DNA of 39,488 nucleotides from a virus. Its lineage: Duplodnaviria; Heunggongvirae; Uroviricota; Caudoviricetes. The position numbers were made by a program, and so were the translations under genes. This document shows, one piece after another, positions 14,177 through 34,955 of the stretch (positions are counted from its first letter, which is position 1; the number at the start of each line of letters is the position of its first letter). The notes beneath the pieces are model-generated. The model was not told the DNA's origin and searched no databases. It worked only from the letters and a program-made list of their open reading frames with translations. The stretch lies in IMG/VR virus record IMGVR_UViG_3300025644_000002, one strand, 5' to 3'.

Positions 14177-15100
14177 CTACGACAGTGTAAGTTTAGCAAG
14201 CGCTTTGGAGTTACCAAATCCGATGCCAATGTGTTCGTACACGGCCCATGTGATAATATTCTTTTTCTTTTCGATCCAGAATTTAGTATCGTTTAATACT
14301 AAGAATTGTCCTAAGAATTCTTGTGGTGCAAAAGCGTAGATCTTGTTCTGTAACAGTGCAGTTGACCCGTCCTGTTTGAACACTTTATTGGAAACAACTA
14401 CTTTACGTCCGAAGAGCGTATTGTAAGTGAAACCATTAATGTAGATTTCGCTTCCTGCTGAGTCACCAATAGTTGATGCATCATACAAGAATAATCTGTT
14501 ATACATTGTAGAATCCATTAATAGGGTATCGCAACGTAATTCCGCTCCGTCTAAAACGTCAAACAGTTCTTTTAGGCTTGATTTTTCAATCACACCTGTT
14601 TCACTGCCGGATGCTCTATAAGAACCGGTCTTAGCGTTTGCAACGGGCATTAGCGCGTCTACACCTTCTAAGAATTTTTCATCTTCAATGCGTTGTAAAT
14701 CGAGTACTGAGTTCTTCTCAATTATGTCAGTCAGTGGCATTTCATAGGCCAACAGCTCTTCTTCAGTCTTCTGAAAGTCTTCAGAACTAACCTGATACAG
14801 GGGTATCTCGAATCGATCGCCCATTACGTATCTAAGGTTTGGCTGTCCGCGCATGTTCAGTGCCATGGCTTCTGAGTCAGGCTCGATGTCCACGATTTTA
14901 ACTAGGCCGTCGTGATTGACAGATCTTGTCAAGTCAGCTTTAGTTACATATTGTGGATTTATTATTTTTCTTGCAAAAGAAACTTCACGTAGTTTTTGTC
15001 TAACGAAAGCTGATCCTTCCATAGCGACTTTCTCAAGTCCCGCAGGGGAATTAAGCTTTTCTACAAATAACTCATTTAGCGTACTAGCTGAATATTCCAT
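14177..15100 (-). CDS. Major capsid protein (probable HK97 fold, 307 aa)
   Basis: Size, position after protease/scaffold/decoration genes, strong SD (AAGGAGG) and a downstream terminator. The VSFARKII..E-loop-like and RKVVVSN P-domain-like segments fit. Confidence 0.8.
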   Translation of the reverse strand: MEYSASTLNELFVEKLNSPAGLEKVAMEGSAFVRQKLREVSFARKIINPQYVTKADLTRSVNHDGLVKIVDIEPDSEAMALNMRGQPNLRYVMGDRFEIPLYQVSSEDFQKTEEELLAYEMPLTDIIEKNSVLDLQRIEDEKFLEGVDALMPVANAKTGSYRASGSETGVIEKSSLKELFDVLDGAELRCDTLLMDSTMYNRLFLYDASTIGDSAGSEIYINGFTYNTLFGRKVVVSNKVFKQDGSTALLQNKIYAFAPQEFLGQFLVLNDTKFWIEKKKNIITWAVYEHIGIGFGNSKALAKLTLS

Positions 15101-15591: not shown

Positions 15592-15912
15592 TTAAAGATC
15601 TTCGACAAGCATTCTTGTCAAAGGATCCATGGTCCCGTCATCCTGAAGTCGGTCACTAACTTCCCCTAGAGACGCGACAGCGCCTCCGAAGCTAGCAGCT
15701 TTTTCAATAACTTCAAGTTCCGAGTCGTCCTTTTGGACGAATTTCTTGATTGTGGACTCCAAATTTTCTGCAGCTACATGTCCGGCTTTAAACATCTGAA
15801 ATACTATTGCATACGCGTTTTGCACATGCGCCAGATCAGATGCTAATTTCTCATTATCATCTCTAAGAGATTCAACAAGAGCCATAGTTTCGCTAATTAA
15901 CTTGGGATCCAT
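15592..15912 (-). CDS. Head-morphogenesis hypothetical protein
   Basis: Intact acidic ORF in the head operon, carries EKAA. Confidence 0.6.
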   Translation of the reverse strand: MDPKLISETMALVESLRDDNEKLASDLAHVQNAYAIVFQMFKAGHVAAENLESTIKKFVQKDDSELEVIEKAASFGGAVASLGEVSDRLQDDGTMDPLTRMLVEDL

Positions 15913-15920
15913 TTTTTTTG

Positions 15921-16226
15921 TTAGTCTTTAGCTAACTCAGCTTTAATAGCTTGTCCTATAATTGTACCCATGTCTTCCAATTCAGCTACTTTTTCAAGCA
16001 TTGTTTCTTGTTCCACATCGTAATCAATCATCATTCCAGCTAATTTTATTACGTCATTTTCGTCGTAATCTTCACCATATTCTGCAGCTAATAAGCCTTC
16101 AGCGCCCTCAGCGTACTTACGTAAAGTTTCTTGACCCTCGTCAACTACTTCTTCAGTAACTTCTTCGGCCACTTTTTCAGCTTCAGTTTCCTGAATAGCT
16201 TTATATGTGTCTAATAGTGTTCCCAT
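15921..16226 (-). CDS. Acidic scaffold-like protein
   Basis: Intact ORF with EKVAE and KYAE motifs. Confidence 0.55.
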   Translation of the reverse strand: MGTLLDTYKAIQETEAEKVAEEVTEEVVDEGQETLRKYAEGAEGLLAAEYGEDYDENDVIKLAGMMIDYDVEQETMLEKVAELEDMGTIIGQAIKAELAKD

Positions 16227-16228
16227 CT

Positions 16229-16816
16229 TTAGTTATCTCCTAAATACTGTGAGGTTAATGCTCCGATAATTCTATCCGCAGCAGTTGTTTTTTCAGCTTC
16301 TTTAACTTCTTCTTTCATTTCTTCAGCTACTTCTTCAGTCTTTTCAGCTTCTTTAACTTCTTCTTTCACTTCTTCTTTAACTACTTCAGCTATTTCTTCA
16401 GCTACTTCTTCAGACGCCTGTTTCTGCAATTCCTTCCAGAAACCTTGAGCCATAATTCTACCCGCATCTTCATATTTTTCAGCTTCTTTCTGTAAGTCTT
16501 CTTCAGCTACTTCTTCAGCTACTTCTTCAGTCTTTTCAGCTTCTTTAACTTCTTCTTTCACTTCTTCAGCTACTTCTTCAGTCTTTTCTGCTTCTTTAAC
16601 TTCTTCTTTAACTACTTCAGCTACTTCTTCAGTCTTTTCAGCTTCTTTAACTTCTTCTTTCACTTCTTCAGCTACTTCTTCAGTCTTTTCTGCTTCTTTA
16701 ACTTCTTCTTTAACTTCCGTAGAACCTTCAAGCATTGCGTCATTAAAAGATTCTTCAGCTGTTTTTTCGTGTTCAGCTTTTAGTTTTGCTAAAATATTGT
16801 CTATATTAAGTGACAT
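16229..16816 (-). CDS. Acidic scaffold-like protein with 17-aa tandem repeats (EEVKEEVKEAEKTEEVA)
   Basis: Glu-rich, about 4-5 copies of a 51-bp unit, between protease and capsid genes. Confidence 0.6.
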   Translation of the reverse strand: MSLNIDNILAKLKAEHEKTAEESFNDAMLEGSTEVKEEVKEAEKTEEVAEEVKEEVKEAEKTEEVAEVVKEEVKEAEKTEEVAEEVKEEVKEAEKTEEVAEEVAEEDLQKEAEKYEDAGRIMAQGFWKELQKQASEEVAEEIAEVVKEEVKEEVKEAEKTEEVAEEMKEEVKEAEKTTAADRIIGALTSQYLGDN

Positions 16817-16817
16817 T

Positions 16818-18539
16818 TTATTGCCCTCCTATGATATCTTTATACAATAAATCCAAATCTTCCGGACTTATTTCTGATAATAACTCTGCTGTTTTAAAAA
16901 ACTTAGGTCTCTTAATAGCTGTTGCTACAGTGGCCCCCACTAGTCCTGCGAGTAATGGATGTTTTCTGGCAAAGTTCTCTGTTGGTTTTAAAGGTACACC
17001 TTTTCTAGCTTTATTCTCCTGTTTACCTGCGTAATAGTAGGCGGTTGGTACTGTTATTAAAGAAGACATTAGGAATTTGTCCACAGCTCCTAAAGAGGCT
17101 TCTTTATTAAATGCTACACTTTGGCTGGCTAAAGAACCGGCCGTTCCCGCTCCCACTAATACTGGAAGTAACCAAGGATATTTAACTACAAACGATCTAA
17201 ATTTATTAATCGATGGATTATTAAATACCTTCGCATACCCGTAATATAAGCTTCCTAGAAGTCCTAATGGAACTACTGGATTTCTATGTGCTGAAACAGG
17301 TGGTTCCTCTTTCTGCGTAAATAAGAAACGTTTTATTCCGCTACGTTCTCTAGAAACATTACTTGGATAGGTTGTTGCTTGAGACTCATATCCTACTTTA
17401 TGTATTCCTCTTGCTAATACTCATTGTTTAGTAAGAGACATATCTGGGACTGACTTCAAAAGCACCCCTGCGATCTTGCTATTAAAATTATCAAAAGTTA
17501 CATTGGGTAATTCTGTAGGGACTGTGTCCTTATCTACAATAAAACAAACTCCATTTTCAGCCCATTTATCTGCCGCTTCTTTTTGTCCAAAAACGTACGC
17601 AGCCAATTTTTGAAAATCTTCTCTAACTGGTGCAATTCGTAAAGCCATCATTGTAGAAAGTATCTCGTCGATATTATACTTAGAAAGCTTTTCGATTGTT
17701 TCATCTGAAAGTCTTTTCTGAGTATGTAATAGGATATTTTTTGGATCTTGGTCCGCAATCTCTATTTTAACGTCTACTTTTTTTCTAATTTCTGCTCTTG
17801 GTTCAAACCCGGCAGCTTTAAAAAGCTGTTTTGTTTCTTTTGGTAATTCCTCTGCAATTTTTATAACACGAGGTCTACTAGATGATTTTGCTTCAAGAAG
17901 CCTAATAAAACTAGCAGTCCTGTCGGCAGGGATAGTTACAACACTGATATCAAAAAATTTCGGCATTGTATTTATTGCGTAAACTTTTCTACCGTCGGAT
18001 AAAATATTATTCATACGATACTTTAAGTGGTCACAATATTGAGCTCTCGTTTGAGCTTTGTTTCCGCAAATGGAGCATATGTCAAAAGGAACTTTAGTTC
18101 CCATAGAACAAAATGGTAATTCTCCTTTTTGCATTTTTGTAATAACGTCTGCACCTTTTTTAGAATCTAATTCTAATATTAATTCTACTCGATGCATTGT
18201 AGGATTATAATGTGAAAATAAAACCTTACCTAACGATTTTCTTGGATCCTTATTTACATGGTGTCTGTACACATGACCTAAAGCTTCAAATGTTTTATGA
18301 TATTGTTTTAAGGCCTTTTCTGGAAAATGATCACCATTTCTATTAGAGCTATAAAATTCTCCAGCAGATAAAGCATTTACTAAAGCATATACTTTGTCAA
18401 CACGCTTTTTTAAAGAATTAATATAATCTACTAACTCTTCTGAATACGACGCAGTTTTCTCCATGGTTCCCTTACCGATAAGGGTAAACACCTCAGAGTT
18501 ATTGTCTCCGTAAAAGTATTCTGCGCGTTTTTCTATCAT
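16818..18539 (-). CDS. Putative prohead (maturation) protease with Cys-rich insertion and C-terminal extension (573 aa, 1 TGA)
   Basis: NGDHFPEKAL, HRVELI, SMGTKVPFDICSICG..YCDHL and FFDISVVTIPAD resemble HK97-type prohead proteases. TGA at 17421 joins in frame to ORF 16818-17156. Confidence 0.65.
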
Positions 18540-18546
18540 TTAATTT

Positions 18547-19110
18547 TTATGTAATGTCGCTATCGAAAGGTGAATTATATTTTGTAGGAGATGTTTGTGC
18601 TTTCCCAAATTCTGCTAAGCCGTCAAATGCTCCTTGCACTAACTCTTTTGATACCATATCTGATAATCCAGGACCCTTTCCGGGTTTCATAGGAGCTCTA
18701 CCAACACCTACTAATGTAGAAAACGTATCAGGAGGGGGTCCTCCAAAGGAATCATAATGACCCCTTTCAATAGACTGCCTAATATAGGCTCCAGAAGCTA
18801 ACGGATCTCTAGCCATGTGCGGTGCAAAATGGTATAATGATTCCCAGTATAATGAAAGTATATTAGGGTCTACCTTATGTAACTTAGGATGCACTGCCAT
18901 CATTTTCTTAAATGCTTTTTTAGCCACAAACTTTTTATTTTTAGATTTAAATACTTCCGTAACTGTATCTACAACAGCGTCAAGTGCTAAAGTAGCAATC
19001 ATCATTCCAGCACCAGCTTTAAAATACTGTATTATTTTTGCCGGATCCTTTTCCCCGATTGCGCCTCTTATCAAACCACTAAATACTTGTGAACCTTTTA
19101 TCTTAGGCAT
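18547..19110 (-). CDS. Hypothetical head-module protein
   Basis: Intact 187-aa ORF with TAATG coupling to the upstream gene. Confidence 0.6.
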   Translation of the reverse strand: MPKIKGSQVFSGLIRGAIGEKDPAKIIQYFKAGAGMMIATLALDAVVDTVTEVFKSKNKKFVAKKAFKKMMAVHPKLHKVDPNILSLYWESLYHFAPHMARDPLASGAYIRQSIERGHYDSFGGPPPDTFSTLVGVGRAPMKPGKGPGLSDMVSKELVQGAFDGLAEFGKAQTSPTKYNSPFDSDIT

Positions 19111-20072
19111 TATCTTCTCCCCATTTTATGCTGAACTAATTTCTTTTGTAATATCAAACCTTGTTCAAACTTACCTTTATTTTTGCCAGACTTATGTACC
19201 ATTGCCCCCACAGCTAATGCTGCAGTAGTTTTGGGATGATTTATAATTGTTTTTCCAATACCTTTAATTACTTTTAAGGCCGCTGATTTTTCTTGTAATA
19301 GTCCACTAATATTAGGAAGAGAGGCTTCTTTAGTAAATTTAGTATAATCCTCTGTTTCCTGTTCTAAATTTTTATCTGCTTGGCAGATTTCATCAGTATA
19401 TGTTTCCAATCTTTCAGCGATTTTATAAATATCTGAGTTAGGGTTAGGGGTTAAGGAATTGTCACCTTCTGTATCTAATTTAACAAAAGGCATATTTGGT
19501 TGTAGTTCCTCTCTTATTGAGGAAATAAAATGTTCATGGGTTTGTGGTGCAGCGACTTTTATAATTTCAGAAACGTTTCCATAAGAGCATCCGCCTAATA
19601 CTGCTTGTTTTATTAGAGACTTTAACTGTCCATATGTAGTATCCCAACTCGTTACATGCTCTGCAATTATATTACTTTCTCTTTGTATACTACCTAAATG
19701 ACGTTGGGCCATTTTCCGTAATTCTGATTCCGTTGCCTCACGTTTCTCAGCGCTTGCTACTTTTTGCATAGAAAAAATAGAAGGCTCATCGTCATAATCG
19801 CTTAAATCCACAGCTACTTTGATAGATTTCATATTCTTTTTAGCTTCCTTTGAATCCGCAACTTCAAAACGTATATATTTATCCGAAGCTGTTTTCATCA
19901 TGTTAAGATACGTGGCCGTATTAGCAAATTCTGCAACTCGGTCAATTTGGTATGTAGTAAATCCCTGGGCTTCAGCTGTTTTAGCTAAACCTTCTGTAAG
20001 AGGGATAGAGTTTTTGATATACTTTTCGGAAATAGACTTACCGAAAATTTCTAAGTCGGATGCTGTGAACAT
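19110..20072 (-). CDS. Hypothetical head-module protein (320 aa)
   Basis: Intact ORF with several KxA motifs (KTAE, KTAS, KVAS, EKSA). Confidence 0.65.
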   Translation of the reverse strand: MFTASDLEIFGKSISEKYIKNSIPLTEGLAKTAEAQGFTTYQIDRVAEFANTATYLNMMKTASDKYIRFEVADSKEAKKNMKSIKVAVDLSDYDDEPSIFSMQKVASAEKREATESELRKMAQRHLGSIQRESNIIAEHVTSWDTTYGQLKSLIKQAVLGGCSYGNVSEIIKVAAPQTHEHFISSIREELQPNMPFVKLDTEGDNSLTPNPNSDIYKIAERLETYTDEICQADKNLEQETEDYTKFTKEASLPNISGLLQEKSAALKVIKGIGKTIINHPKTTAALAVGAMVHKSGKNKGKFEQGLILQKKLVQHKMGRR

Positions 20073-20124: not shown

Positions 20125-21663
20125 TTATTTTACTGCCCCAAACATTAGTTCGCAAGCTATAGTTCCAAAAATACAAGCATGGGCAAAATCATCTGGACCT
20201 ATATTAATATATTTCATAAATCCTCGCTCTTCGTCATAGTCAATTTGTATATTCATAATGTCTTCTTTAAAAGAATCCATTGATACTGTATGTGGAAATT
20301 CTATTCGTAAATTTTTAATGTTTTCAAAGAATTCAGTCATTACTTTAGTTCTATTTAAAGTGTAGGCGGGCATCTTGTCATTCCATTGAATTTTATTTTT
20401 CTGGGTACCGGAATGTTGAAATGCTACTACTTTTTCATAACCTATTCTAGCTCTGAGTTCTGAATTTGGCGCTTCGCCCATTCCATAATCTGAAGCTACA
20501 CTAACGCAATTTCACTTAGCCATTATTTTAGGAATTTCTGGAACGATAAAACTATAATCGGCTTCTTTTCCAATAAACTTTTTAGCATAAACTACTCGTA
20601 ATTTATTAGAGCGAAGTTGCATTACTACTGCTACGGTATAAGATTTTTCTGAATTAACTGGGCCATAATCGATAGCTAATACACTAGGATAATTACGCTG
20701 TTCCTCGTTAGGATCCTCTTCCATTAACGGGCCGGTACTGGCTCTATCTATTTCAAATTCTGTAACAGGTGATACTCCAGCATCATATTCTAACGCTAAT
20801 ACTTCATTGTGAAAAAAAGCTTTAGACCAATGCCTTTGTTTATCTAATATATCTTCCTGCCAATTAACCCAGGGTGCTTTTGCAAAGTGTAAAGCGCAAA
20901 CTCTATACCCTTCCATAGCTGTAGGATTTTTTAAAGAATATGTAGAAACTCATTCTCCTCCTACACTAATATCTAAAGGTCTACCACACTTCTTACATAT
21001 AACTCCGAAATCCCCAATGTTTTCTTCATCTAAAATATTTCAATGATTACAACTTTGGCACTTAACTATATATTCGCACATAGTAGATTTATGCCATAAA
21101 TCAGCTAAAGTTCCTCTAGAACGTTTTGGGGTACCAGAATATACTATCCATTTATAATCAGAGTGTGTCATAGTTTCCTGTACCACAGGAATAATTTCAC
21201 TAAGCATGTCCTGACACTCATCGAAAATATTCATATCCGCAGAAAATCCACGTAATTTATCAGCAGAAAGCAGCGCATATCTTATATGCATTAAAGATCC
21301 ATTAGCTAATTCTTTATGGTGAACATTATCTACTAGAGAAGTATTCATATAGTGATCTTTCATAAAAGGGCTACCTTCTAAAAAAGGTTTCACCCTATCA
21401 TGACTGAATATCTTAGCTTGAGTAATCGTAGGAGCTACGTATAAAGTTTTAAAGAAAGGAATCATACCAGAATTAGCTGTTACCATTCCCGCCATTGTAG
21501 TGGATTTAGCCGTCTGTCTGCTAAATTGCATAACTTTCTTTTTAGGCGAAGTATCCCACACACGTCGCATATGGGGGTAATCATCTAAAGAGAAGGGGGC
21601 GCCATTTAGCCAGAAAAATGATTCTGCAAATTCGCTACGTGATATTGCTATCTTTTGAGACAT
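20125..21663 (-). CDS. terL: Terminase large subunit (512 aa, 3 TGA=Trp)
   Basis: Walker A SRQTAKST, Walker B IFDECQD, SGTP, CxxC..CxxC insert, nuclease AIDYG and SDYGMG. Three track ORFs join via TGA at 21040, 20950 and 20512 (CNH*NILD, GE*VST, AK*NC). Confidence 0.9.
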
Positions 21664-21875
21664 CTTGGATTAGATTTTTTCTTTTTATGTTTGGTTCTTT
21701 GGCTAGGCTTAACATAATGCTGTCTTCATCTCACTTCTTCCATGATATTTTCTGTATCTAATCTGCTTCTTAAGCGTCTTAGTGCATCACTAATTCCTCT
21801 TTGATCTTGGTTGTGTACGTATACCTTTAACCCAAAATCTTTAGGTCCACTTTTCTTCTGTATCTTATTTGCCAT
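21648..21875 (-). CDS. rpsU: Ribosomal protein bS21 (75 aa, 1 TGA)
   Basis: GLKVYVHNQDQRGISDALRRLRSRLDTENIMEEVR*RQHYVKPSQR fits the bS21 pattern V..V..ALRR..K...E.R.R..Y.KPS. Missing from the ORF track. Confidence 0.8.
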
Positions 21876-22656
21876 TGTTTAGCTTGATTTCTTTAAATTT
21901 TTCGAATAACTCGCCATGAGGTCCGTGTTCGATAAATTTATATACTACGTTTCTATAATTATTCCTCGGGGTTCCTCACCCTAAAGAATACTCTAATTTT
22001 CTAGATTTATCTAGATTTTGAGAAAAATTAATGAGATCTTGTCTATCTTCATTTATTTCCTTTTTTTTATTTCTAATCCACCATCACTTATGTCAAGAAT
22101 CTGGTAATGCTATAAGAGTCTCTAAATCTTTTTTGTCTTTATGGAAAGCTAAAACAAGTCTTTTATAATGTCCAGCAACCATTTTTGCTATAATAAATTC
22201 TTGATTAAATTGCTTATGCGGGTCTCTAACTGTAGCTCTAGCGGGTGGGTTGTTTGCTCAAACATTTGAAATTACATCAAATACTCCAAACGTAGAATTT
22301 TCTCAATTAGATAATTTTGAAGTATGGGGCATAACAAAATAATTTACAGGATGTCGGGTACCCTGTGCAAGATAGCCATTAACTTCTTTCTTAGCTTGAT
22401 GAAAATAGTCACCATAAGGCTCAATCGTAACGTTTATATCTATGTCCGACGTTTCAGTATATTTGTATCCTGTAATGGATCCTAAAATAACCACACTTCG
22501 TACCACTTTCTTAGGCACAAAAGCATATAACCTATTTAAAATTTGATCCCTAATGTGGGGATATAGTTTTCCCTCAGTAGTCCATATATCGCTAGCTAAA
22601 GTATCTTGTGGCACATCTAAGATGCCTGCTTGTTTTTTAATGTATTGATTACTCAT
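21865..22656 (-). CDS. Pol-beta-superfamily nucleotidyltransferase (263 aa, 5 TGA)
   Basis: ILGSITGYKYTETSDIDINV (GS..DxD). Reading through TGA extends it to a TAA overlapping the bS21 start. Confidence 0.75.
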
Positions 22657-23480: not shown

Positions 23481-23837
23481 TTATTTTATTGACGTGAAGA
23501 TATAGCGTTTGCCTCTTAAATTCTTTAAACTAAAAATATCGCCTAATTCTGTTTTAAATAACAAAAATCCCTTTTCAGCATCAAGCAAAAGGGCGGTTCC
23601 TTTAGAGACTATTTTAACTATGTTTTCTTCACTATCTTCCTCGTAATTTATACTTGAAAGAGCGTGATCTTTAGTGCGAATAATTGGTACTGGATATCGC
23701 TCTTTTCAAAAGTTATGTTTAGAACTTCACGAATACACTAGCTCGGCTCCGGAGGGACAAAACAATCTCATATCGAAATGAGTACCTTTTTTATTTTTAT
23801 GAACAGAATAGGAATAGTCCCAGTCTTTATAGTCCAT
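23481..23837 (-). CDS. LigD-type 3'-phosphoesterase (PE) domain protein, stand-alone (start uncertain, 2 TGA)
   Basis: VHKNKKGTHFDMRL..LVYS*..P..RTKDH matches the PE motifs H..HYDFRLE..L.SWA..TEDH, with TGA at the conserved SW Trp (23727-23729). Confidence 0.7.
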
Positions 23838-23903
23838 ACTCTTCAAAATATGAGAGTACCCTTTTTCATAGTACTTTATTTTCTGTTTAATGTCATCCTA
23901 TGG

Positions 23904-24464: not shown

Positions 24465-25067
24465 CTACTTGTATCGTTTAGCTCAATTCTTCGCCATCTC
24501 TATGCGATTTGCTGCTGCACTATTTTTTTCTTTCTGTAGGAGTATAGTATTTTTCTTATCTGAAATTTTAGCTTTACTTATACTATTCTTCAGTTTATAA
24601 GCCTTAAGATTTTTTGGTATAAACTTTGCTGTTTTCTTAAGTAAAAAAGGTTGTGACGCTTTAACTGCTGCCTTATTCTGTAATTTAATAGTGGTAATAT
24701 CTGCCTTTTGTGCCTTTGTAGCTATATTTCCTGGAAGAAGTCTTTTATTTTGAGTAGCCGCAGTTACCCCTGAAAATTGTAATTGAGATTTAGTTAGGCC
24801 TTCAGCAGTTTTTATACTATTCATAAGTTCAAGATCTTGTGTTCGGTCAAATCTTCCAGCTTTTCTTTTTCGTAGATTAGTATTATTTTTGTGAATTAGA
24901 GAGTCAGCCTTTAATTCTAGTCGTGTTGGGTTTCTGTATTTCTGCCTTTTAGGATCAAGTACGTTTCACAAATTTTTAGTATTTTGTAATTTGGACTTTG
25001 TTAGAGCCTTGTTTATATGTCTTGTAGAGATTGCTAGTTTCTCAAATACTATTGTTGCTTTATCCAT
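24465..25067 (-). CDS. Basic DKA-leader protein (200 aa, 2 TGA)
   Basis: Starts MDKATIVFEKLA; TAATG-coupled to the upstream gene. Confidence 0.7.
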
Positions 25068-25675
25068 TAGGCTAATCCCACTTCATCACCATTCTTAATA
25101 GTTTTCATCATGCCTTTTACATGTCTAAGTTTCCCTTCTTGTTTTTTTCTATATAATTTATTTCCTGCAAGCTCTGTCTTCTTATCAAGTATGTTTGTTT
25201 TTGTAGCAGAACGGTCTCATACTCTACCAAGTCTTAGAATTTTTTCAGTATTCTTAGTAGTATGGTTATCGTAGTTTCTTCAATTTTTTTCTGATTGTCT
25301 AAATGCTAAGCTACGAGAATTGTCAACACTCTTATATACTCTATTAAGGCGTTTTAACCCTCTTGATCCTGCATACTTACGAAGTATTGCTGCGCCTGTA
25401 AGAGCCCCCGCCACCACCACTCCAACAGCGTTTAATACTGCTCTTCGCCTATTCTTTTTGAACTGCTGCTTACTAACTTTAGGATATGTATGGGTCGATC
25501 TATATTGCTTATCATATGCGTGTAGCTTTTTACCATGAATTTTTTTGTATTTTTCATAGCCAGCATTATAGTCGTCGTTCCATTGTTTAACAGTCATACC
25601 TTCAGGAATCAGTCCTAAACTTTCTACGGATCTACCCGCTAATTTTTCAAATACTATTGTTGCTTTATCTTTCAT
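25067..25675 (-). CDS. Basic DKA-leader protein with a hydrophobic Gly/Ala helix (202 aa, 2 TGA)
   Basis: Starts MKDKATIVFEKLA; read-through ends exactly at a TAATG junction. Confidence 0.7.
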
Positions 25676-25679
25676 ATTT

Positions 25680-26408
25680 TTATCCATATACCTTTTTAAG
25701 TAAGTTACTATCTGTTATTTTATTTTTTTTGTACTTAGACATGCGAACTGTTCATTTATCATATGTAGACTTTTCTGAAGAGGGTCTATTAAAAAAATCA
25801 TGTTTAGCCTGTCCTGATAAGGTTTTCATATGCTTTCTAGCTCTATACTTTTTTTTACTTCCCTTACTAAATATCTTGCCAAGTTCAGTGGATCTGTTTT
25901 TTGCTATATCTGGAGATAAAAAATCAATTACTTTATTTCCAGCAACATTTGAAGAGTGAAGATCTTGCACGGTTTTACCAATTATTTTTCTAGAATCTTT
26001 ACGTGCACTTCTTATAAGTTTTACGTGCTCGTCAAATGTTTTTTCACTCGGAACACTATATTGTTGGTATGTTATTTTCTTTTTTTTATCGGCTCTGTGA
26101 AACTTAGCAAAATGTGGTGATTTATTCAGTTTTTTTGAAACTTGTATTTTAGTATTAAAGGCTTTACGGCTAAACATTGGACTAGTCGTGTCATGAATTT
26201 TGGCCACTTCTACTCCATGTTTCGGAGAGGTTCTTAGTTGTACGAGCGCCTCATTGCCTCGACCAGCCTTTCTTAAAGTTCTTGGTTTCAACTGTAAGCT
26301 CTGTGAAATACGTTTTACGTTGTTAAGCGACAATGTTCCACGATTAAAGGCCCTTACTAACGCTGTTTTAGCTATTTTTTCAAATATGTAAGTTGCTTTA
26401 TCTTTCAT
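25680..26408 (-). CDS. DKA-leader protein with protein-kinase-like fold (242 aa, 1 TGA)
   Basis: AGRGNEALV (Gly loop), VAK, DLHSSN and VIDF motifs. Confidence 0.65.
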
Positions 26409-27142
26409 TAATTTGTCTCCAAAATTTTAGATTTTTTTGTAGTCCCTGGAACAAGCATCTTGCGCGCTCTTAATCCAGAATTATATTGAGCTCCTGCTGC
26501 TACCCCTCCTATAGCTCCTGCCGCTAATATTCCAGAAGATATTAAAGTTATACCTCGGTTTAACCCGTGTCTTACTGATTTCAGTATCTTTGGATTAGCT
26601 CTTGCGCTAGTAAATGTTTCCTTAATTACATCCTTAAAGTTAGTTTTTGATTTTATAGTATCCCCTCGTTTATTTTTTCATAATACCTTGCCTTTTTCTG
26701 AAGGACCTTTTGTTTTCTCTAAATCCTTTATAGACAGGTTTTTTAATGTATCCAGAATAACAGAAAAATCTTTTTTAGATACTTTAGATTTAGTTTTTAA
26801 TGCTTTATTAATTTTACTACGCGCATGAAGAGACTGCCCTAATACTTTATATGGTTTAAAAGCTTCAGAAGCTACTGCATGGGCTTTAGCCTTTATGCCG
26901 GGTCCGGCCTGTCTAGAGGCGCTTGGCCCTTTTACCATAGTAGACAACACTGCTGGAGTAATTACAGAGCTCCCTATAAAACCTCCTGCAACCGCTGTAC
27001 CCATATGCCTTTTATGATTTTCTTTATTATTAATAGCGCTTTCAAATGTCCAACGTCCGGTAGGCTCTACTCCTGCGAAAAAATCTCTGGTAGCTGAAGA
27101 GTCTTTTCCTAATTTTTCAAATATATACTGTGCTTTATCCAT
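26408..27142 (-). CDS. DKA-leader protein with Gly/Ala-rich hydrophobic segments (244 aa, 1 TGA)
   Basis: Starts MDKAQYIFEKLG; read-through at 26678 ends at a TAATG junction. Confidence 0.7.
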
Positions 27143-28425
27143 TATATTATCTTATTCTTTTTTGCAGTGGTGAACGCTTTAAAAGCAGTTGTAGCTAAAT
27201 TAGCTATCCCAGATCTAGTTCCCCCTACTGCTTGTTGCCTATAAGTTTTTAACGCCTTAACTCTAAGAGCGTCGTCTGCAGGTACTCCAGCGTTATCCCA
27301 AGCATCGATTTCCATTTTAAATCTATTTGTTTTTTCAGGCTTGCCCACAAGATTATGAAAAACATCTGTTGCTTTTCCTCTTGAATGTTTTCCTAATTTT
27401 TTTGGAGAAGTAAGACCCTTATTCTTAAAATCCGCGATATGTCCTAGTTCGTGATCTATAATTTTTTGAGAAGACCCTTTTGATCCAATTATAACTGCGG
27501 GGCCGTGTTTACCCATAGTAGCTGCCGCGTTAGGTTGCTTTAATATAATTTTATTCATTTGATGAGATATAAAACCTCCTGGTCCTCTACCTACATTTTT
27601 CTTAACTCATTTTTTAGAACTGGCTTTATCGTGAATAACGCTTACACTGTCTCCCATTTTAGAGTTTACATACCCGGGAACGTCCTTCATAAATGGTTGT
27701 TTTGCCATTTCCTTTTGAGCGGCCTTACCCGCCTTCACCTGTGAATGTACGGTTTTAAGATGGTAACCTTTCGCTCCTACGGCTAACCCTGTAGCCACGT
27801 TATCTACTTTACTTCAATTAATTTTCTTATCTATAGCTTTTACGGTAGCGGTAGCTTTTGCCACTCCTTCATTATTTTTTATATTTGTTACTCCGCTCCT
27901 GATTTTAGCTTTTAAATCCTGAACTTCTGCATATTTCTTAAATATTAATGTTACTTTATCTTGCATTGCTAATTTCTCCGTGTTTATTCCTAAATCTATT
28001 AAGTTCTTTCTAGCTGCTGGGCTTTGAGTTCTCACCCAGGTGCCGAAACTAGGAAAATCCTTTGTATTAGCTTGGTTAGCTTTTGAGGTCGCATACCAAT
28101 CAGTTACTGCTTCTAATTTATTTTTTCTTTCAGAGACCAAACCAAGTTTGTGGGCATGATGTGGGTTTCGTTTGTAGTGAAGCGCTGCTGCTTCTCTAAA
28201 TTTTCTAGTTACTTCTGGATCCTTCGTACCAGTAATACCTTTAGGGCCCTGCCAATAGGCTACATAAGGCTTCCACTCGCTTGGGCGGAACTTAGAGAGG
28301 TCATGAGCTAAAAGCGTCCCGTATGGGGCTCCTATAGTCCTGCCGGGCCTAATCATAAAGGCCTTATGCCTAAGAAGACGTTTACCATATTGATAGTGGT
28401 CTGATATAGAGGGTTTATTTTGCAC
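27142..28425 (-). CDS. Fusion of a DUF5662/HD-like domain and a HExxH metallopeptidase-like domain (427 aa, 2 TGA)
   Basis: AHDLSKF..E..HYKRNPHH..EAVTDW, then internal MQDKVTLIFKKYA, then DHELGH..EIDAW. Three track ORFs join in frame via TGA at 27814 and 27607. Confidence 0.6.
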
Positions 28426-28429
28426 TAGT

Positions 28430-28882
28430 TTACCAATTCATCTCTAATTCTGGATATTTGTCTTTTATTTTCTTTTTTAAACTAGCATCAGTAAAATTAA
28501 TTAGTTTTTCACCAAACCTTTTTTGAATGGGCATGTCTTTTGTATAATATGTTGACATATGCATATCACCGCTTTCTCCCCAATCCGGATTAGCTCTGTG
28601 AAATATAAGTTGATGGTTTTTAGTTTGTACCACCCCTTTATCTCCAATATTCATTTTAGTTTTGACTATATCTATTTCTGGTAATACTTTCTCTATTATA
28701 TCTTTTCCTTCATTCCTATTAGACGTAACTGACTTCATTCGTGTTACGCGGTCCAATTTTGGTTTAAGGCGGGTATGGCTCTTTACCTGGCTAATAACGT
28801 CATCCCAACTTTGTAACGAGGGTACTCTCGCCATTCCAAACTTATAAAAATATTTATTATATACTTGCGCAGCTTTATCCAT
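28430..28882 (-). CDS. DKA-leader hypothetical protein
   Basis: Starts MDKAAQVYNKY. Confidence 0.65.
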   Translation of the reverse strand: MDKAAQVYNKYFYKFGMARVPSLQSWDDVISQVKSHTRLKPKLDRVTRMKSVTSNRNEGKDIIEKVLPEIDIVKTKMNIGDKGVVQTKNHQLIFHRANPDWGESGDMHMSTYYTKDMPIQKRFGEKLINFTDASLKKKIKDKYPELEMNW

Positions 28883-30275
28883 CACTTCCTACTTCCTTTA
28901 ATACTTTAGTAAAATCATTTACAAGATTTTGTTTATTTTTTGATAGCAATTCTAGATACTCATCAGTTCCCGCATGTTGTCTACGTAAGAATCTAGTTTT
29001 ACGTGGCTTATTAATATATGTTTGAATCGTTATATTTCGATTTTGTTTTTTTAAATGTTCATGAGACTTGAATCTATTTACTCTACCTTTTACTTGTTTT
29101 AGAGTAGGTTCATTCCAATGAGGCTCTAATATTTGAAGAAGCCTTGTTCCTTTTAAATCAAGCCCTTCTGCTCCCGCTCCAGATATAAGTAAGTGTTTAA
29201 TCTTGCCAGAATTATATTTCTTTACTACATCAGCTTTTTCTAGGTCAGTCTGTCTTCCTGTAAAGGTGCCAAAAGGTATCTTAGTTCTCTTAAGTCTTTT
29301 GGCCATTGGGTCCACTCCGTGACCTAAGTATGTAGAGTAAGTTACTCCACGATATTTTTTATTAGCTTTATGCCTCTTAGAAATTTCTGACATCGCTCTA
29401 TTTAGTTTAGGAGCATCGGCCTCTGTAGCGCTTAAATTGTATTTGCCCGGACGATTAGATACTTGGCGTGCCGCTCCTAAGAATGCATTCATTCGAGATG
29501 ATTCTGTTTTAGAAGGAGCTATTCCATGCCTAATTTTATACTTTAAATCAGGATCTTCTTTCATAACCATTTTATAAGCTGCTTGTTGTTTTTTAGACAT
29601 TGTAGTTTCTATACGCTCATTTATAACTGAAGGATAATTTTTATCTTTAGTTGGGGCATGATAATCTACTTTGCCTCGTAGAGCTTTTCTAAGAACTCCT
29701 AAATTTTTCCCACGTTTTACCGTTCCAGGCTTAATACCCTTAAATACTCGTGCAAAAAATCCAGGTTTTTGTTTAGTCTCTTGAATAAACGCCTGGTTAA
29801 ATCTTTTTTTATCTCTACCTATATTAATATTTAAACCCCGTAAAAGCGGTATTAATTCTGCAGGTTCATTTCTAATAGGAGTTCCTGATAGAAGCAGGGT
29901 TTTCTTACCCTTTATTTTATCTGGATAGTGTGAACGTTGGGACTCTGTTCTACCCATTCTGTGGGCTTCATCGAATACAACTACGTCTTTTGAAACATTT
30001 TTTGTTGGAGGTTTATTATAAGAATAATAAGAACCTTCCCCTTTTATTTTATGCTTAAGCCTCTCTTTAGGAAAATTATGTTTTAAAGCTGCAGGGCCTA
30101 TAACTGTTACAGGTTTCTTAAACTTTTCACCTGCACGTAATGCCGTATAGGTTTTACCAGAACCTAAGCCGTGATATAACAACATTTGATCAGTCTTCTC
30201 AAGCTTCTTTAATACTCTAGCTTGGTGGGGCTGATCGGCAGCATACTTATTAAATACGTGTAGGGCTTTATCCAT
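28875..30275 (-). CDS. SF2 (SNF2/DEAH-like) helicase/ATPase with DKA leader
   Basis: GLGSGKT, DEAH, SGTP, GAEGLDL, EPHWN and QVKGRVNR motifs; starts MDKALHVFNKYA. Confidence 0.85.
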   Translation of the reverse strand: MDKALHVFNKYAADQPHQARVLKKLEKTDQMLLYHGLGSGKTYTALRAGEKFKKPVTVIGPAALKHNFPKERLKHKIKGEGSYYSYNKPPTKNVSKDVVVFDEAHRMGRTESQRSHYPDKIKGKKTLLLSGTPIRNEPAELIPLLRGLNINIGRDKKRFNQAFIQETKQKPGFFARVFKGIKPGTVKRGKNLGVLRKALRGKVDYHAPTKDKNYPSVINERIETTMSKKQQAAYKMVMKEDPDLKYKIRHGIAPSKTESSRMNAFLGAARQVSNRPGKYNLSATEADAPKLNRAMSEISKRHKANKKYRGVTYSTYLGHGVDPMAKRLKRTKIPFGTFTGRQTDLEKADVVKKYNSGKIKHLLISGAGAEGLDLKGTRLLQILEPHWNEPTLKQVKGRVNRFKSHEHLKKQNRNITIQTYINKPRKTRFLRRQHAGTDEYLELLSKNKQNLVNDFTKVLKEVGSDG

Positions 30276-30276
30276 T

Positions 30277-30999
30277 TTATTTCTTACCGTATATTGCTTT
30301 AGGTATATTAGAATTTCGGGTCATACCGCTCTCTAATAACTTACTTCCAAAATCTATAGCTTGGTACTTAATACCTTCTATAGCTGCAGCTGGTTTTTTC
30401 TTTAAAGACAGAGCCTTCCACACTTCACTCTTAACCGCTTTTTTAAATCCCTCAGTCTGTTTCCCGACAGTGGTTGTTTGTAGAGCTTTGCGCCCCCTTC
30501 TACCTGCGGGAAGGAAGTCAATTATTTTTCCACCCTGAATGTTTCCTGGGTTTCTAACTACGTCGGCCATAGGTACACCTCTCAGTGTAGCTTGTGCCTT
30601 TGTTAGAAGAGTTTGTTTTATAGAGCTCCCAATTCCGGCAGTTCCTGGACTATACTCGTGGAAAGTGATGGGTCGTTTAGGATCTTTTCCATAATACTTG
30701 GCAAAATTGCCTTTGCCTGACATTGTTTTAAAAGTACGAACTTTTTCTTTTAATACCTCTTTACTCGAAAGCCCTCCCTTAGGGTCATAGAGTTTAGCAA
30801 CTTGAAGTTGGTGTTTTGCGGAAGTCCTTAACTGTGCCAACCCTTCAACTCCCTGGCCCAAATCTTTTAAATATCTAGACTTAAGTCCTAAAGTTTGAGT
30901 AGCTTTTCCCGCTGCTTCTGCAGAGATCTTTCTAGCCTTAACCGCTCTTATCATCGCAGTTGAAGCTCATTTTTCAAATATGTATTGTGCTTTATTCAT
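30277..30999 (-). CDS. DKA-leader kinase-like protein, paralog of 25680-26408 (240 aa, 1 TGA)
   Basis: MNKAQYIFEK*AS; LGQGVEG, VAK, DVVRNPGN and KIIDF motifs. Confidence 0.65.
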
Positions 31000-31541
31000 T
31001 ATGCTGTTCCTTTTATAAATGTGTGATATCTGTTAATTGCGCCTTTTACTGTAGGAGCTGTATTAAAGGCTCGATGAGTATTAGTTACATATATAGTTCT
31101 ACCATCAGGTTGTACCGATTTCCATACAGCCGGAGTTGCTTGGCGTTTGCCATCTCTACCAAAATGAAAATTCCAAACTGCTTTGCTTTTCATCACTAAC
31201 GCGCGCTCTTCTGGAGTTAGAGGTTTTTTATGTTTTTGAAGTTTCTTAAACTTGATTTTACAAGAGGTATATTTAGCATACTTCTCAAATACCTGAGCTA
31301 CCTTCTTAAAAGAGGTTAAGATCCCATTATAACCTTCCCTAGTAACGTTAGGGAGGGGTTTCCTAGTAAACACTTCTCTACTCATAAATGGTATAGATTT
31401 ATTAGCTATTAAGGCTCTATATTTAGCTTTGTTCTTTCGTCCCTGCAAAAAGATATTGTCTCATCCAGCTTTTTGTTGAATGAGGGTTGGATCGAATCCT
31501 CGATCTATCTTAAATTTTGGTACTGGAAAGAATTTAGGCAT
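30999..31541 (-). CDS. Basic hypothetical protein with internal KVAQVFEKYA motif (180 aa, 1 TGA)
   Basis: Track ORF extends to ATG 31541 through one TGA. Confidence 0.6.
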
Positions 31542-31756
31542 TGACTATTTTTGAGAAAATGTATTCTGCTTTTTTGTATAACTGAGCATAATCTTTATAT
31601 TTCTTTCCAGGATTTGCTTTTTTTTCATTTAGCAAAATTTGCAATTGCGTTGGGTCCGTAGAGACCTCTCATTACATTAAAACCCTTTTTACCCTCAATC
31701 ATGTGAGTCAGATGTTTTACTTCGGTAACTAAGTCTTTTACTGCTTGTTTTTTCAT
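31534..31756 (-). CDS. Small protein with an apparent frameshift at an A8 run
   Basis: Frame 1 stops at 31595. The shifted frame continues KKANPGKKYKDYAQLYKKAEYIFSKIVNA, which contains the family motif. Confidence 0.45.
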
Positions 31757-31774
31757 TTAATTATTTCCCACTCT

Positions 31775-33814
31775 TTAAGATGCGTAGTCTATATCATTAA
31801 TTAATCTAGACGTTGTTAAAGCCTCTGGTACATATTTTTTTAGCTGTTTACTGGTAAGATCTTGACCGCCTCTTAATCCTTTAACTTTCAAATATTTTCG
31901 CTGAGCTTTATCGCTCCCTACGGCAGCTGCTATCATTGTTCCAAACGCTGCACCCGCTACAGCTCCTACTGCAACATTTTTTCCTAAACCTTTCATTTTT
32001 CTTAATACTGAAAGCGGTTCTGGGTTTACAGCTCAATAATTACTAGGAGGATTTTTACCTAACCATTTTGTACCTGATCAAGCTCCTAATGCTGCTCCGA
32101 CCCCCGTTGTTTTAGGTATTGTGGCAGTCCTATATTGTTTACTTCTTTCCTTTTTTGAGCTCGCCGAATACTCTGGAGCGTTTTCTTTATTCCATTTGCC
32201 AGAAGGACTTTCCTGTAAGGCTCTAGCATGCGCTCGCGCTTGTAGCTCTTCTCTTATTCTAGACAACTCTAGATCATGTGCTAAATCTATATAAGGATAC
32301 TTTTTACCTAATTTACTCATTACAGCTTCTGCTTTTTTATTTAAAGACATAGCTCCGCCTACTAAGGTAGCTGCTGCTGTAGGAGTTCCTACTACTGTTC
32401 CTACTACTTTAGCTGTTTCGATTTTAATCTCTTTTTCTACATTTTTTAATAGTTCCGTATACTTAGGATGATCCTTATGAAGTTTAGAGGTCACAGTTTT
32501 TAATTTATTTATATAATCTGCTTTACTTTGTTTAAGGCCCTTTAGACGGCTACCTTTTACTAGTTCCAAATATCTAGCAGATACCGATCCAGTTTTACTA
32601 GCGCGCCCTATCCCTATTCCTGCGAGAGTTGTTCCTGCGCCAAACCCTAGAAGTTTAGCATTTAAACTTATTCCTTTCTTTGCCGCAGGTTGCTCAGTTT
32701 TTGCCGGAGCAGTTGAAGTTGTAGCCTTTGTAGATTTTGTAGATTTCGAAGTAGTTGAAGCTGCTGACGCTTTCGAAGATTTCGAAGTATTCGCAGCGGT
32801 TCCTTTACCTCCAGAAGAGGTCCATCGGGCATCTACGGGTGCCAGACTTTTATTTTTCACTACTCTTTTTGAAGTTCCTTTAACAACCGCATCTGAGGTT
32901 GCTTTCGCTTCCTGGGCAATTGTTATGGCCTTTAATTTTAATGCCTTCGCATTAATTGCAACTTTTAAAAATACATATTCCGCTTTTTTATCTATAACTG
33001 CGTCTGCTAATACAGCTGCTGCGCCTGTACCCGCCGCACCTCGTGTAGCGTATACTTTTACAATTTCTTTACCAGCCTCGTTAGCGTCAAGCTCTTTCCC
33101 GCTCTTTTTAGCTGCATCTATCTTAGACTTCATCTTATTGCCAGAAAATAACTCTTTAGTTCTTTTTAATACCTTCTGCCCTGTCTCAGCCACGCTTGCA
33201 GCAGTCGGTCCTGCAGTTTTATTAAATAATAGTTCTGCTTTAGAAAACTCTCCTTGTTTCTTCATATTTGTACTCCTATGGTATCCTATGCCAGAACCTA
33301 TAGCACTTCCTGCTAATAACGCGGCTGCTGGTACTTTGAATGTTTTAAATTTTGTTAAGGTGCCTTTTATTTTATTAGTAAATAATTGAAAAGCTTTTGA
33401 TGGTAAATCTGGTTGTTTTATAAAATTTTTAGCTAACTGCTTTTGATTTTTTAAATAGGCCTTTGTAACATCGCTTATGTCGTTGAATGTTTTTCCTTTT
33501 AAATCTTCTATGTTTTTTTTATTACTTGCAAAAAATTGTCTAGTAAACAGTGCCGCCCCAGGTAAAGACCCTAACATAGACCCAGTAAGGGCTGCTTGAG
33601 CTGCTTGCACCTTTCTCCCTTCCGGAGCTAATGACGCCGCTGCTGCACTTTGTAAGGGCGCGCCAGGCACCAACGTAGAAATAGCACTTGATGCTCCTAC
33701 TAAAGAGGCGTTCATAAGTTTTCTAAATTTAGTACGCCTTTTTGGTTGTGGAATCGACGGGACTGCTGAGGCTCCTAACCCTACTACAGTTCCTAATGGT
33801 GATTGAATATCCAT
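31775..33814 (-). CDS. Large basic Gly/Ala-rich protein with three internal KAE..F.K motifs, polyprotein/ejection-protein-like (679 aa, 2 TGA)
   Basis: SKAELLFNKTA, KKAEYVFLKVA and KKAEAVMSKLG. Joins ORF 31775-31996 in frame via TGA. Confidence 0.65.
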
Positions 33815-33822
33815 TTTAACTC

Positions 33823-34167
33823 CTATTTATATTTTTTGTCTAGATAGTCTTTAGTAACTCCGTAGGTACCAAATCCTATAGCTAACGTTGGAATGTTACG
33901 TAACAATTTTAATCCTAAACCTTTATACAAAGATTTAAAAGCCTTTAATTTACCTATTGGTTTCGTAAGTTTAGGAGGTTTATTAAAGTCAACATTTTGA
34001 GAGGGAGGAGCCGTCTGACGACGAACTTGTAGGGTATCTAAGGGGTGAAGCAATAAACTGGTAACAGTCCCAGATAATGCTCCTGGGGCTAAATCTAATA
34101 ATAGACGATTAGGTTTACGTTTATTACGCTCAGCGTATTTCATAAACACGTGTTGTGCTTTATCCAT
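33823..34167 (-). CDS. Single-repeat mitochondrial-carrier (Solcar/SLC25)-like membrane protein with DKA leader (114 aa)
   Basis: GALSGTVTSLLLHPLDTLQVRRQ and SLYKGLGLKLLRNIPTLAIGFGTYGVTKDYL match both halves of one carrier repeat; starts MDKAQHVFMKYA. Confidence 0.75.
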   Translation of the reverse strand: MDKAQHVFMKYAERNKRKPNRLLLDLAPGALSGTVTSLLLHPLDTLQVRRQTAPPSQNVDFNKPPKLTKPIGKLKAFKSLYKGLGLKLLRNIPTLAIGFGTYGVTKDYLDKKYK

Positions 34168-34861: not shown

Positions 34862-34933
34862 AGGGGCGTAGTTCAATTGGTAGAGCTCCGGTCTCCAAAA
34901 CCGGCAATGCGGGTTCGAGTCCTGCCGTCCCTG
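34862..34933 (+). tRNA. trnW: tRNA-Trp, anticodon CCA (34895-34897); 3' CCA not encoded
   Basis: Full cloverleaf: AGGGGCG/CGTCCCT acceptor stem, CCGGT-CTCCAAA-ACCGG anticodon arm, GCGGG-TTCGAGT-CCTGC T arm. Confidence 0.97.
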
Positions 34934-34955
34934 CACCTAACAATGGAGAGCACAT

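Follow-up and report, generated by a model that had tools for sequence, protein, structure and literature searches.

Why should a dozen adjacent genes of a tailed phage, whose products otherwise have little in common, carry one and the same short peptide? The question is posed by a 39,488-nucleotide stretch of DNA (the window) from IMG/VR virus record IMGVR_UViG_3300025644_000002, a member of the Caudoviricetes. The window comprises bases 52706-92193, reverse strand, of a 163,945-bp viral contig, and positions given here are those of the window unless another sequence is named. At 24465-34167 lies an array of 12 minus-strand genes marked by a 12-residue sequence, M(K)DKAxx(I/V)(F/Y)xK(L/I/Y/W)A, which we call the tag. 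We put a probability of about 0.6 on the tag being a capsid-targeting propeptide of the kind known from phage T4, ending in a site for the prohead protease, and on the array being the disaggregated form of a polyvalent protein, that is, of a protein with several effector domains in one polypeptide.

A peptide shared by twelve adjacent genes

A regular-expression scan of all six frames returned eight matches to the tag, all on the minus strand and all at start codons (34167-34132, 30999-30964, 30275-30240, 28882-28847, 27142-27107, 26408-26370, 25675-25637 and 25067-25032). When a profile built from these copies was run against all six reading frames of the contig, it scored them at 22-30 bits; beyond them nothing in the contig exceeded 10.6 bits, and the top leftovers were internal copies within the array. 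The copies that are internal or C-terminal, again on the minus strand, lie at 27963-27928, 31310-31275, 31578-31543, 33247-33212, 32992-32957 and 32341-32306. All 12 genes carry the tag at least once, eight at the N-terminus, three internally and one at the C-terminus, and the four that have no N-terminal tag hold the six further copies, with one inside each of 27142-28425 and 30999-31541 and three inside 31775-33814. An earlier note on this DNA had described a shared tag on about 12 proteins and had listed genes with internal copies; both observations stand, the best non-N-terminal profile scores falling in the very genes that it named. Within the 164 kb the tag is confined to the array, and it is present in related phages.

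The bodies behind the tag had been called unrelated, and all but two of them are. When the N-termini of the 215 predicted genes were compared all against all, 13 of the 15 top pairs joined one array gene to another, the remaining two being true full-length paralogs elsewhere; with the tags trimmed away, only two kinase-like proteins were still homologous (E 6e-24; 36% identity). The 36 bases of the tag vary at synonymous positions and the DNA upstream is dissimilar from copy to copy, which argues that it is the peptide that is under selection. A DNA repeat or promoter was considered and rejected on the same grounds, the flanks being dissimilar and the tag DNA varying synonymously. Conserved first codons might instead act on the messenger RNA, in the initiation of translation of late genes, as the position of the motif exactly at start codons and its richness in AAA and GAA could suggest. 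We consider this very unlikely: six copies are internal, four of them without a nearby start codon, the amino acids are kept through synonymous and hydrophobicity-preserving non-synonymous changes, and high-GC relatives encode the same peptide core.

As a peptide, the tag has hydrophobic residues spaced as in an amphipathic helix (i, i+3, i+4, i+7); its helical hydrophobic moment is 0.42-0.56 in all but one of the eight N-terminal copies, which has 0.30. A classical signal peptide (Sec, Tat or lipoprotein) was rejected, since the 12-residue amphipathic tag has charged residues throughout and lacks the hydrophobic core, of ~10 or more residues behind a charged N-region, that marks such peptides. 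An amphipathic helix could also send late proteins to the membrane or to another assembly site, for lysis, superinfection exclusion or envelope remodelling, and many array proteins do have Gly/Ala-rich hydrophobic segments, one of them being a carrier repeat with two membrane helices. Yet the same tag is borne by a soluble SNF2 helicase, whose ortholog is found in virions, and by a DUF5662 protein; the absence of a hydrophobic core speaks against membrane delivery as well, and such a role would leave unexplained why the core motif is common to protease, scaffold-like and capsid proteins (see below). Membrane delivery is quite unlikely as the function of the tag.

One tag version per genome in related phages

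Relatives were found in IMG/VR by helicase searches, and several carry the tag in versions of their own. In G001 (210 kb, 99% complete), whose helicase is 80% identical, the same tag marks nine genes of an orthologous array and one gene elsewhere. G002 (helicase 64% identical) has a shorter, 8-residue version, M[SGA]KFFKxA. It marks six genes, which form two clusters: the first adjoins the gene for a 2019-residue fused beta-beta' RNA polymerase, and the second lies upstream of that for the terminase; a seventh gene starts MPLFFNTA, and one long form of the tag is present besides. Three further genomes (L016, L018 and L019), with helicases 39-43% identical, guanine plus cytosine (GC) contents of 36-55% and the standard genetic code, bear [GS]F[EN]KxA on the helicase and up to three of its neighbours, two to four genes each. 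Aligned with one another, the N-termini of six helicases all keep M1, F8, K10 and A12; a linker of 0-15 residues then leads to the conserved core of the enzyme, so the tag is a separate N-terminal module. Tags that are uniform within a genome and different between genomes are what would be expected if all tags of a phage fit one partner.

The window-type tag was also sought, as an exact back-translation, in a collection of roughly 1e11 bases. It was found at the starts of open reading frames in 13 stretches on 10 contigs, namely G001, seven more of low GC and two of high GC; chance matches were estimated at below one, and the two high-GC contigs (three stretches) are possibly of that kind. Several low-GC contigs hold two to five tags, one of them five over its two stretches, and one further contig holds an N-terminal and an internal copy. 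In the high-GC matches L131:13723 and L138:1066 (GC 0.65-0.66), MDKADMKFEKAA starts a protein with an NlpC/P60-like Cys motif, which is either a coincidence or a remote instance of the tag, there attached to a cell-wall hydrolase. Judged by terminase and RNA polymerase, the closest relatives in culture are Vibrio phages D69, D148 and D181 and Salmonella phage Arash; a 151-residue protein of D69 (161560-162015) starts with the tag-like MDNVDTLLEKIA.

These comparisons bear on the idea that the shared N-terminus is a by-product of array evolution, left by recombination at a common 5' segment or by descent from one tagged ancestor, and has no present function. Array gene order and content do vary between close relatives, modules break at tags, and the internal-protein locus of T4 is similarly plastic. 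Set against this are the synonymous variation of the tag DNA, its dissimilar flanks, the retention of the peptide across helicase orthologs 39-44% identical and contigs of 33 to 58% GC, and the uniform version that each genome keeps. Conservation across distant orthologs, together with uniformity within each genome, points to selection on the peptide, and we regard a functionless by-product as improbable.

The core of the tag recurs in the proteins of the head

All versions of the tag have in common the pentapeptide hydrophobic-x-K-x-A. In the window genome, the proteins encoded between the terminase and capsid genes (the head-core proteins) contain it 23 times, against 5.2 in composition-preserving shuffles (z score 7.5), and the rest of the genome contains it at expectation. 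The same holds for G001, G002, Vibrio phage D69 and Arash, with head-core z scores of 10-14 and the rest of each genome at expectation; portal, RNA polymerase and helicase are likewise at expectation. Pooled over the five phages, 140 copies are observed and 24.3 expected (5.8-fold), a figure whose z score overstates the significance because orthologs are not independent samples, although the specificity is still clear. That specificity is seen in 15 control patterns, in which Arg replaced Lys, the spacing was shifted, the order reversed, the final residue changed or the hydrophobic position dropped, and which gave 0.74-1.48 times expectation. The remark in the earlier note that KxA recurs in scaffold and protease proteins was correct, and it proved the strongest lead.

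The motif is also well placed. Next to the terminase gene, two head-core proteins of 320 and 187 residues are encoded at 18547..20072 (-), ahead of the protease gene; the longer has eight copies, the first two conserved in orthologs. The prohead protease (16818..18539, minus strand; 573 residues; phrog_18299, E 6.7e-11, with a weak Peptidase_S78 match) has one copy ~25-30 residues from its N-terminus, with K28 and A30 invariant in five aligned orthologs, and the motif is there in D69 and Arash also. Three acidic scaffold-like proteins at 15592..16816 (-), of 195, 101 and 106 residues and with isoelectric points (pI) of 4.0-4.4, repeat it many times. In the major capsid protein (14177..15100, minus strand; phrog_2522) it occupies residues 23-27 and is conserved in orthologs, ~22-30 residues in. 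Conservation near the protease and capsid N-termini spans phages only ~30% identical. The capsid protein itself has a tag-like stretch near its N-terminus (residues 11-16, or 9-16 on a wider reading; two hydrophobic residues, then E/Q-K-L), which most orthologs conserve. It may be that the cargo tags mimic a capsid-protein N-arm that contacts the scaffold.

Proteases of the T4 gp21 and phiKZ types trim themselves and the capsid protein, chop up the scaffold and remove short propeptides from internal proteins (PMC5694885). The distribution of hydrophobic-x-K-x-A is like that of their sites, and by this analogy we read the motif as the probable recognition site of the prohead, or maturation, protease. 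In head-core sites the residue that follows the motif Ala is mostly S, E, A or G. Herpesvirus assemblin is related in fold to phage prohead proteases, and on the analogy with it we would guess that cleavage falls after the Ala. A predicted complex of protease residues 33-232 with helicase residues 1-32 (score 0.25, mark 0.32) speaks neither for nor against binding.

Three side observations concern these proteins. The ~300-residue C-terminal extension of the protease has several Gly/Ala-rich hydrophobic segments and ends in KFFKTAE, resembling the G002-type tag, and a Cys-rich insertion in the catalytic domain (CSICGN...YCDH) is conserved in all orthologs. Outside the window, at G000:C1:36319-38496 (L104:6320-8497), a 725-residue protein of no known family, encoded within a small island of same-strand genes, has ten copies of hydrophobic-x-K-x-A and the tag-like N-terminus MDNLFIKNSFTKTAS; it is a candidate for a further internal head protein. 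Lastly, a Pol-beta-type nucleotidyltransferase (21865-22656, minus strand), whose gene adjoins the bS21 and terminase genes, begins with hydrophobic-x-K-x-A-G-(I/L)-L-D, kept in the window, G001 and G002, and may from its sequence be another processed head protein.

Array modules and polyvalent proteins

Polyvalent proteins, as described by Iyer, Burroughs, Anand, de Souza and Aravind (2017), bring together modules such as RNA polymerase, metallopeptidase and SNF2; their packaging in phage heads has been predicted (PMC5512222). In two relatives, L005 and L006, the orthologous helicase forms the first domain of proteins of ~1200 residues, with a LigD phosphoesterase next; the matches of the L005 fusion to an ATP-dependent ligase and of the L006 fusion to Zn_peptidase_2 lie below the Pfam curated cut-offs, and the N-termini of both fusions are tag-like. 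G001 has a LigD-ligase protein within the array. The window array resembles polyvalent proteins in its SNF2 ATPase, its Zn-peptidase-like HExxH protein and its DNA-end enzymes, and in their head and packaging context, the array being followed closely by the terminase, protease and capsid genes, with RNA polymerase next door in relatives. It differs from them in that the window modules are mostly separate genes of one module, each tagged (only 27142-28425, with DUF5662 plus HExxH, is clearly of two domains), and in that a methylase is absent.

Modules part and join at tags. A 208-residue protein of G001 corresponds to residues 34-190 of the 679-residue window protein (31775-33814) followed by residues 16-87 of the 180-residue one (30999-31541). 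Homology between the 679-residue protein and this G001 protein stops where the first internal tag begins, and the G001 gene stops where the next G001 gene starts with a tag, one that the 180-residue window protein holds internally. That a gene was split or fused precisely at a tag supports the suggestion that internal copies may be polyprotein junctions. The DUF5662 protein also shows the tag in both positions: in G002 and L134 it is tagged at the N-terminus, and in the window and G001 the tag lies downstream of the domain, the internal tag of G001 being a near-perfect copy.

Basic cargo, virion content and a model for packaging

Eleven array proteins have pI values of 9.6-10.7 and consist of Lys plus Arg to 17-24%, in a genome with a median pI of 6.2 and with only 17% of its proteins above pI 9.5. 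T4 provides a precedent in basic internal proteins that touch the packaged DNA (PMC3012670). In mass spectrometry of Arash virions, 'DNA helicase Gp217' gave 38 peptides and 1148 spectra and was one of the most abundant proteins, RNA polymerase subunits being the most abundant by spectra; Gp220 and Gp221 are listed as virion proteins (PMC10585845). The tagged helicase has its Arash ortholog in Gp217 (33% identity, E 7e-70), and Gp220 and Gp221 are homologs of the 320- and 187-residue head-core proteins.

From these strands we infer that the tag binds a component of the procapsid and is cleaved, and that its cargo is packaged and ejected. The N-terminal tag would mark very basic enzymes and membrane-active proteins for entry into the procapsid together with the acidic scaffold. 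Ending as it would in a prohead protease site, hydrophobic-x-K-x-A, probably cut after the Ala, it would be removed at head maturation, and the mature cargo would remain beside the DNA and pass into the host cell on infection. The array would be the split-up equivalent of a polyvalent protein. A module encoded by itself would need a tag to itself, and between fused modules the tag would survive at the junction as a cut site.

A narrower role for the peptide must be weighed, in which it is only a propeptide that the protease removes, for example a latch that keeps enzymes inactive or soluble up to the time of head maturation, and targeting is left to the basic charge or to binding of the cargo to the acidic scaffold or to other cargo. 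The conserved core of the tag equals the putative cleavage motif, the G002 tag has just 8 residues, the Arash helicase is packaged untagged, and the cargo is all very basic and the scaffold-like proteins acidic, all of which a bare propeptide would accommodate. Conservation also covers the residues ahead of the core (MDKAxx, then a hydrophobic one), needlessly for a bare cut site, and the equivalent T4 peptide does the targeting (PMC5694885). On balance we think that a propeptide with no part in targeting is unlikely.

Several observations weigh against capsid targeting by a cleavable tag. Two of the eight N-terminal tags end in G or F rather than A, and the residue between K and A is bulky in tags (L, I, Y, W) and mostly E, V, T, A, Q or S in head-core sites, a difference to which the protease may be sensitive. 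On its own the pentapeptide is too short for specificity at N-termini genome-wide: within 16 residues of the start it is enriched only ~2-3 times, probable chance matches included, and it was not used as a predictor; the interdependence of orthologs in the pooled count has been mentioned. Portal and RNA polymerase, virion proteins in Arash, are untagged in relatives. Arash Gp217 is in virions although it is untagged, with a reported peptide coverage of 100% (PMC10585845), from which it follows that the tag is not universally needed. The work on SPN3US notes that the processing of ejection proteins varies between relatives (PMC5694885). The capsid-targeting and processing tag that the earlier note proposed is partly supported, by peptide conservation, by concerted change within genomes, by the enrichment of the core motif, by basic charge, by homology to polyvalent proteins and by the presence of the Arash helicase in virions; it is the need for the tag that the untagged helicase weakens.

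More tentatively, and with odds clearly against it, the pentapeptide could be a single docking and cutting signal for everything inside the head (capsid N-arm, protease, scaffold and cargo), its short N-terminal version being a portable, lineage-specific address label. If so, enzymes would plug in as cassettes, split from or fused to polyvalent proteins, and in each genome label and receptor would evolve together.

Comparison with known packaging signals

The closest parallel to a targeting propeptide of this kind is T4. Its capsid-targeting sequence, 10-20 residues long, is common to diverse internal proteins and is removed at a gp21 site (PMC3012670, PMC5694885). Like the peptide of IPI, IPII, IPIII and Alt, the tag is short, N-terminal and attached to diverse basic proteins of a variable locus; the T4 peptide ends at a prohead-protease consensus that is also present in scaffold and capsid proteins, as the core motif is in the window, and the T4 cargo is packaged with DNA and injected (PMC3012670, PMC5694885). 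The tag is not known to resemble the T4 peptide in sequence, and the putative site is hydrophobic-x-K-x-A, not (L/I)-x-E. Unlike gp21, the window protease matches HK97-type and other phage protease profiles; unlike the small inhibitors of T4, the window cargo consists of large enzymes (helicase, HExxH protein, DUF5662). The tag also occurs inside fusion proteins, and related phages have versions of their own. The window system most likely works like that of T4 and stands outside the T4 sequence family, tag, cut motif and protease type all being different.

Other phages offer partial parallels. In P1, the N-terminal 30 residues of DarB suffice for packaging, and the Dar proteins have no consensus N-terminus in common (PMC9024508), unlike the window array. 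Phages phiKZ, 201phi2-1 and SPN3US resemble the window in having many head-internal proteins, some encoded beside virion RNA polymerase genes, that the prohead protease trims at a short consensus (PMC5694885); they differ in that phiKZ-like propeptides are mostly 100 residues or longer, form no uniform tag and end in the motif (S/A/G)-x-E (PMC5694885).

If the tag does address proteins to the head, a rule of sequence would reveal from the genome which proteins are injected by a widespread group of uncultured marine phages, among them an unexpected mitochondrial-carrier repeat, kinase-like proteins and DNA-end enzymes. It would also show how polyvalent proteins and arrays of single effectors change into one another, and it would provide a second, unrelated pair of tag and protease for loading foreign proteins into phage heads. 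To our knowledge, a tag common to many cargo proteins has so far been characterised experimentally only in T4-type phages, the P1 signal being that of a single protein, DarB. In staphylococcal phage 80alpha, N-terminal extensions of the capsid and scaffold proteins are cut by the host protease Prp at an L27-like motif. As in that phage, a short N-terminal peptide ending in Ala is common to proteins of the capsid and scaffold; unlike the window tag, the 80alpha motif has consecutive Phe-Phe-Ala, needs a Firmicutes-type host protease and is not known from cargo enzymes.

The genes of the array

The late operon opens with a mitochondrial-carrier repeat protein (33823..34167, minus strand; 114 residues), a single repeat (Mito_carr, E 1.7e-14) behind an N-terminal tag that scores 29.7 bits. 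Carrier-repeat homologs with tag-like N-termini occur in G001, where the ortholog has the same tag, and in G002, which makes this a conserved member of the cargo set. It is followed by the Gly/Ala-rich basic protein of 679 residues (31775..33814, minus strand), with three internal tags and an untagged N-terminus, and by a small gene (31543..31756, minus strand) that is interrupted at a run of eight A residues. The run, at ~31633-31640, divides the open reading frame starting at 31756 from a downstream frame that ends in the tag at 31578-31543; a +1 shift would give a protein of 74 residues, and behind it may be an error in sequencing the homopolymer, slippage during transcription or programmed frameshifting. 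This copy of the tag runs right up to the start codon of the gene that follows, which is read in another frame. That gene encodes the basic protein of 180 residues (30999..31541, minus strand), whose internal tag at 31310-31275 scores 10.6 bits.

Next come a tagged kinase-like protein of 240 residues (30277..30999, minus strand), which has a kinase-like order of motifs and no Pfam match, and the tagged SNF2-type helicase of 466 residues (28875..30275, minus strand), which matches Pfam SNF2-rel_dom and Helicase_C and, in PHROGs, phrog_62 (E 1.4e-35), a 1881-position 'polyvalent-like' helicase profile. A tagged protein of 150 residues (28430..28882, minus strand) has the tag that ends in F. The 427-residue protein at 27142..28425 (-) combines DUF5662 (Pfam E 2.3e-16), the internal tag at 27963-27928 and a C-terminal HExxH; homology between this HExxH region and the tagged HExxH protein of G002 is unsupported beyond the motif (E 0.33). 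The basic protein of 244 residues that follows (26408..27142, minus strand) has Gly-zipper-like hydrophobic segments and the tag that ends in G. Its neighbour, the tagged kinase-like paralog of the 240-residue protein, has 242 residues (25680..26408, minus strand). The array closes with a basic protein of 206 residues (25067..25687, minus strand), with its tag at 25675-25637, a possible start four codons upstream and a tagged homolog in G001, and with a tagged Lys-rich protein of 200 residues (24465..25067, minus strand).

The helicase, DUF5662 plus HExxH and carrier-repeat labels given to these genes at the outset hold, and the kinase label has no confirmation from Pfam. Apart from the helicase, DUF5662 and carrier-repeat proteins, no array protein has a Pfam or PHROGs match. 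Outside the array, a LigD-phosphoesterase reading of 23481-23846 was tried and dropped, Pfam giving no confirmation.

Genetic code and genome context

The array genes are intact only with TGA on the minus strand read as Trp. Under the standard code the flagged region is fragmented, each break being an in-frame TGA; under code 4 it becomes a tightly packed row of co-oriented genes with overlapping stop and start codons, which starts at 34167 on the minus strand and takes in the terminase, protease and capsid genes. In-frame TGA is found only in this late, structural strand block, and the codons align with Trp in relatives: those in the large terminase subunit (20125..21663, minus strand; phrog_675, E 2.2e-69), part of the same operon, stand opposite TGG-encoded Trp or aromatic residues of orthologs. 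One TGA lies inside a tag itself (FEK-W-A, gene 30277..30999). ARAGORN found no suppressor transfer RNA (tRNA) with anticodon UCA in the contig, although TGA is read as Trp; the sole Trp tRNA has anticodon CCA (window 34862-34934, plus strand; genome 3602-3674), and in one tRNA-like gene the anticodon loop is irregular, being given as '(cc)'.

The contig is one single piece of 163,945 bp, with 36% GC, 12 tRNA genes and an estimated completeness of 77% (CheckV). Among deposited phages no near-identical DNA was found for the array. The contig, incomplete as it is, lacks the fused beta-beta' RNA polymerase that relatives encode. In relatives that polymerase is a single-chain fusion of 2008-2357 residues with the motif NADFDGD (L002:2724-8783; G001:C1:92299-99357; L018:3512-9538). 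The portal gene lies just upstream of it in L018, D69 and Arash, and tagged genes come directly after it in G002 and L018. The terminase genes of G001 and G002 (~890 residues; L098:3929-6604 and L099:7424-10093) have insertions of ~370 residues that are absent from the window gene, as does the G002 protease gene (967 residues; L099:11680-14580) relative to its window counterpart; these insertions in terminase and protease may be inteins.

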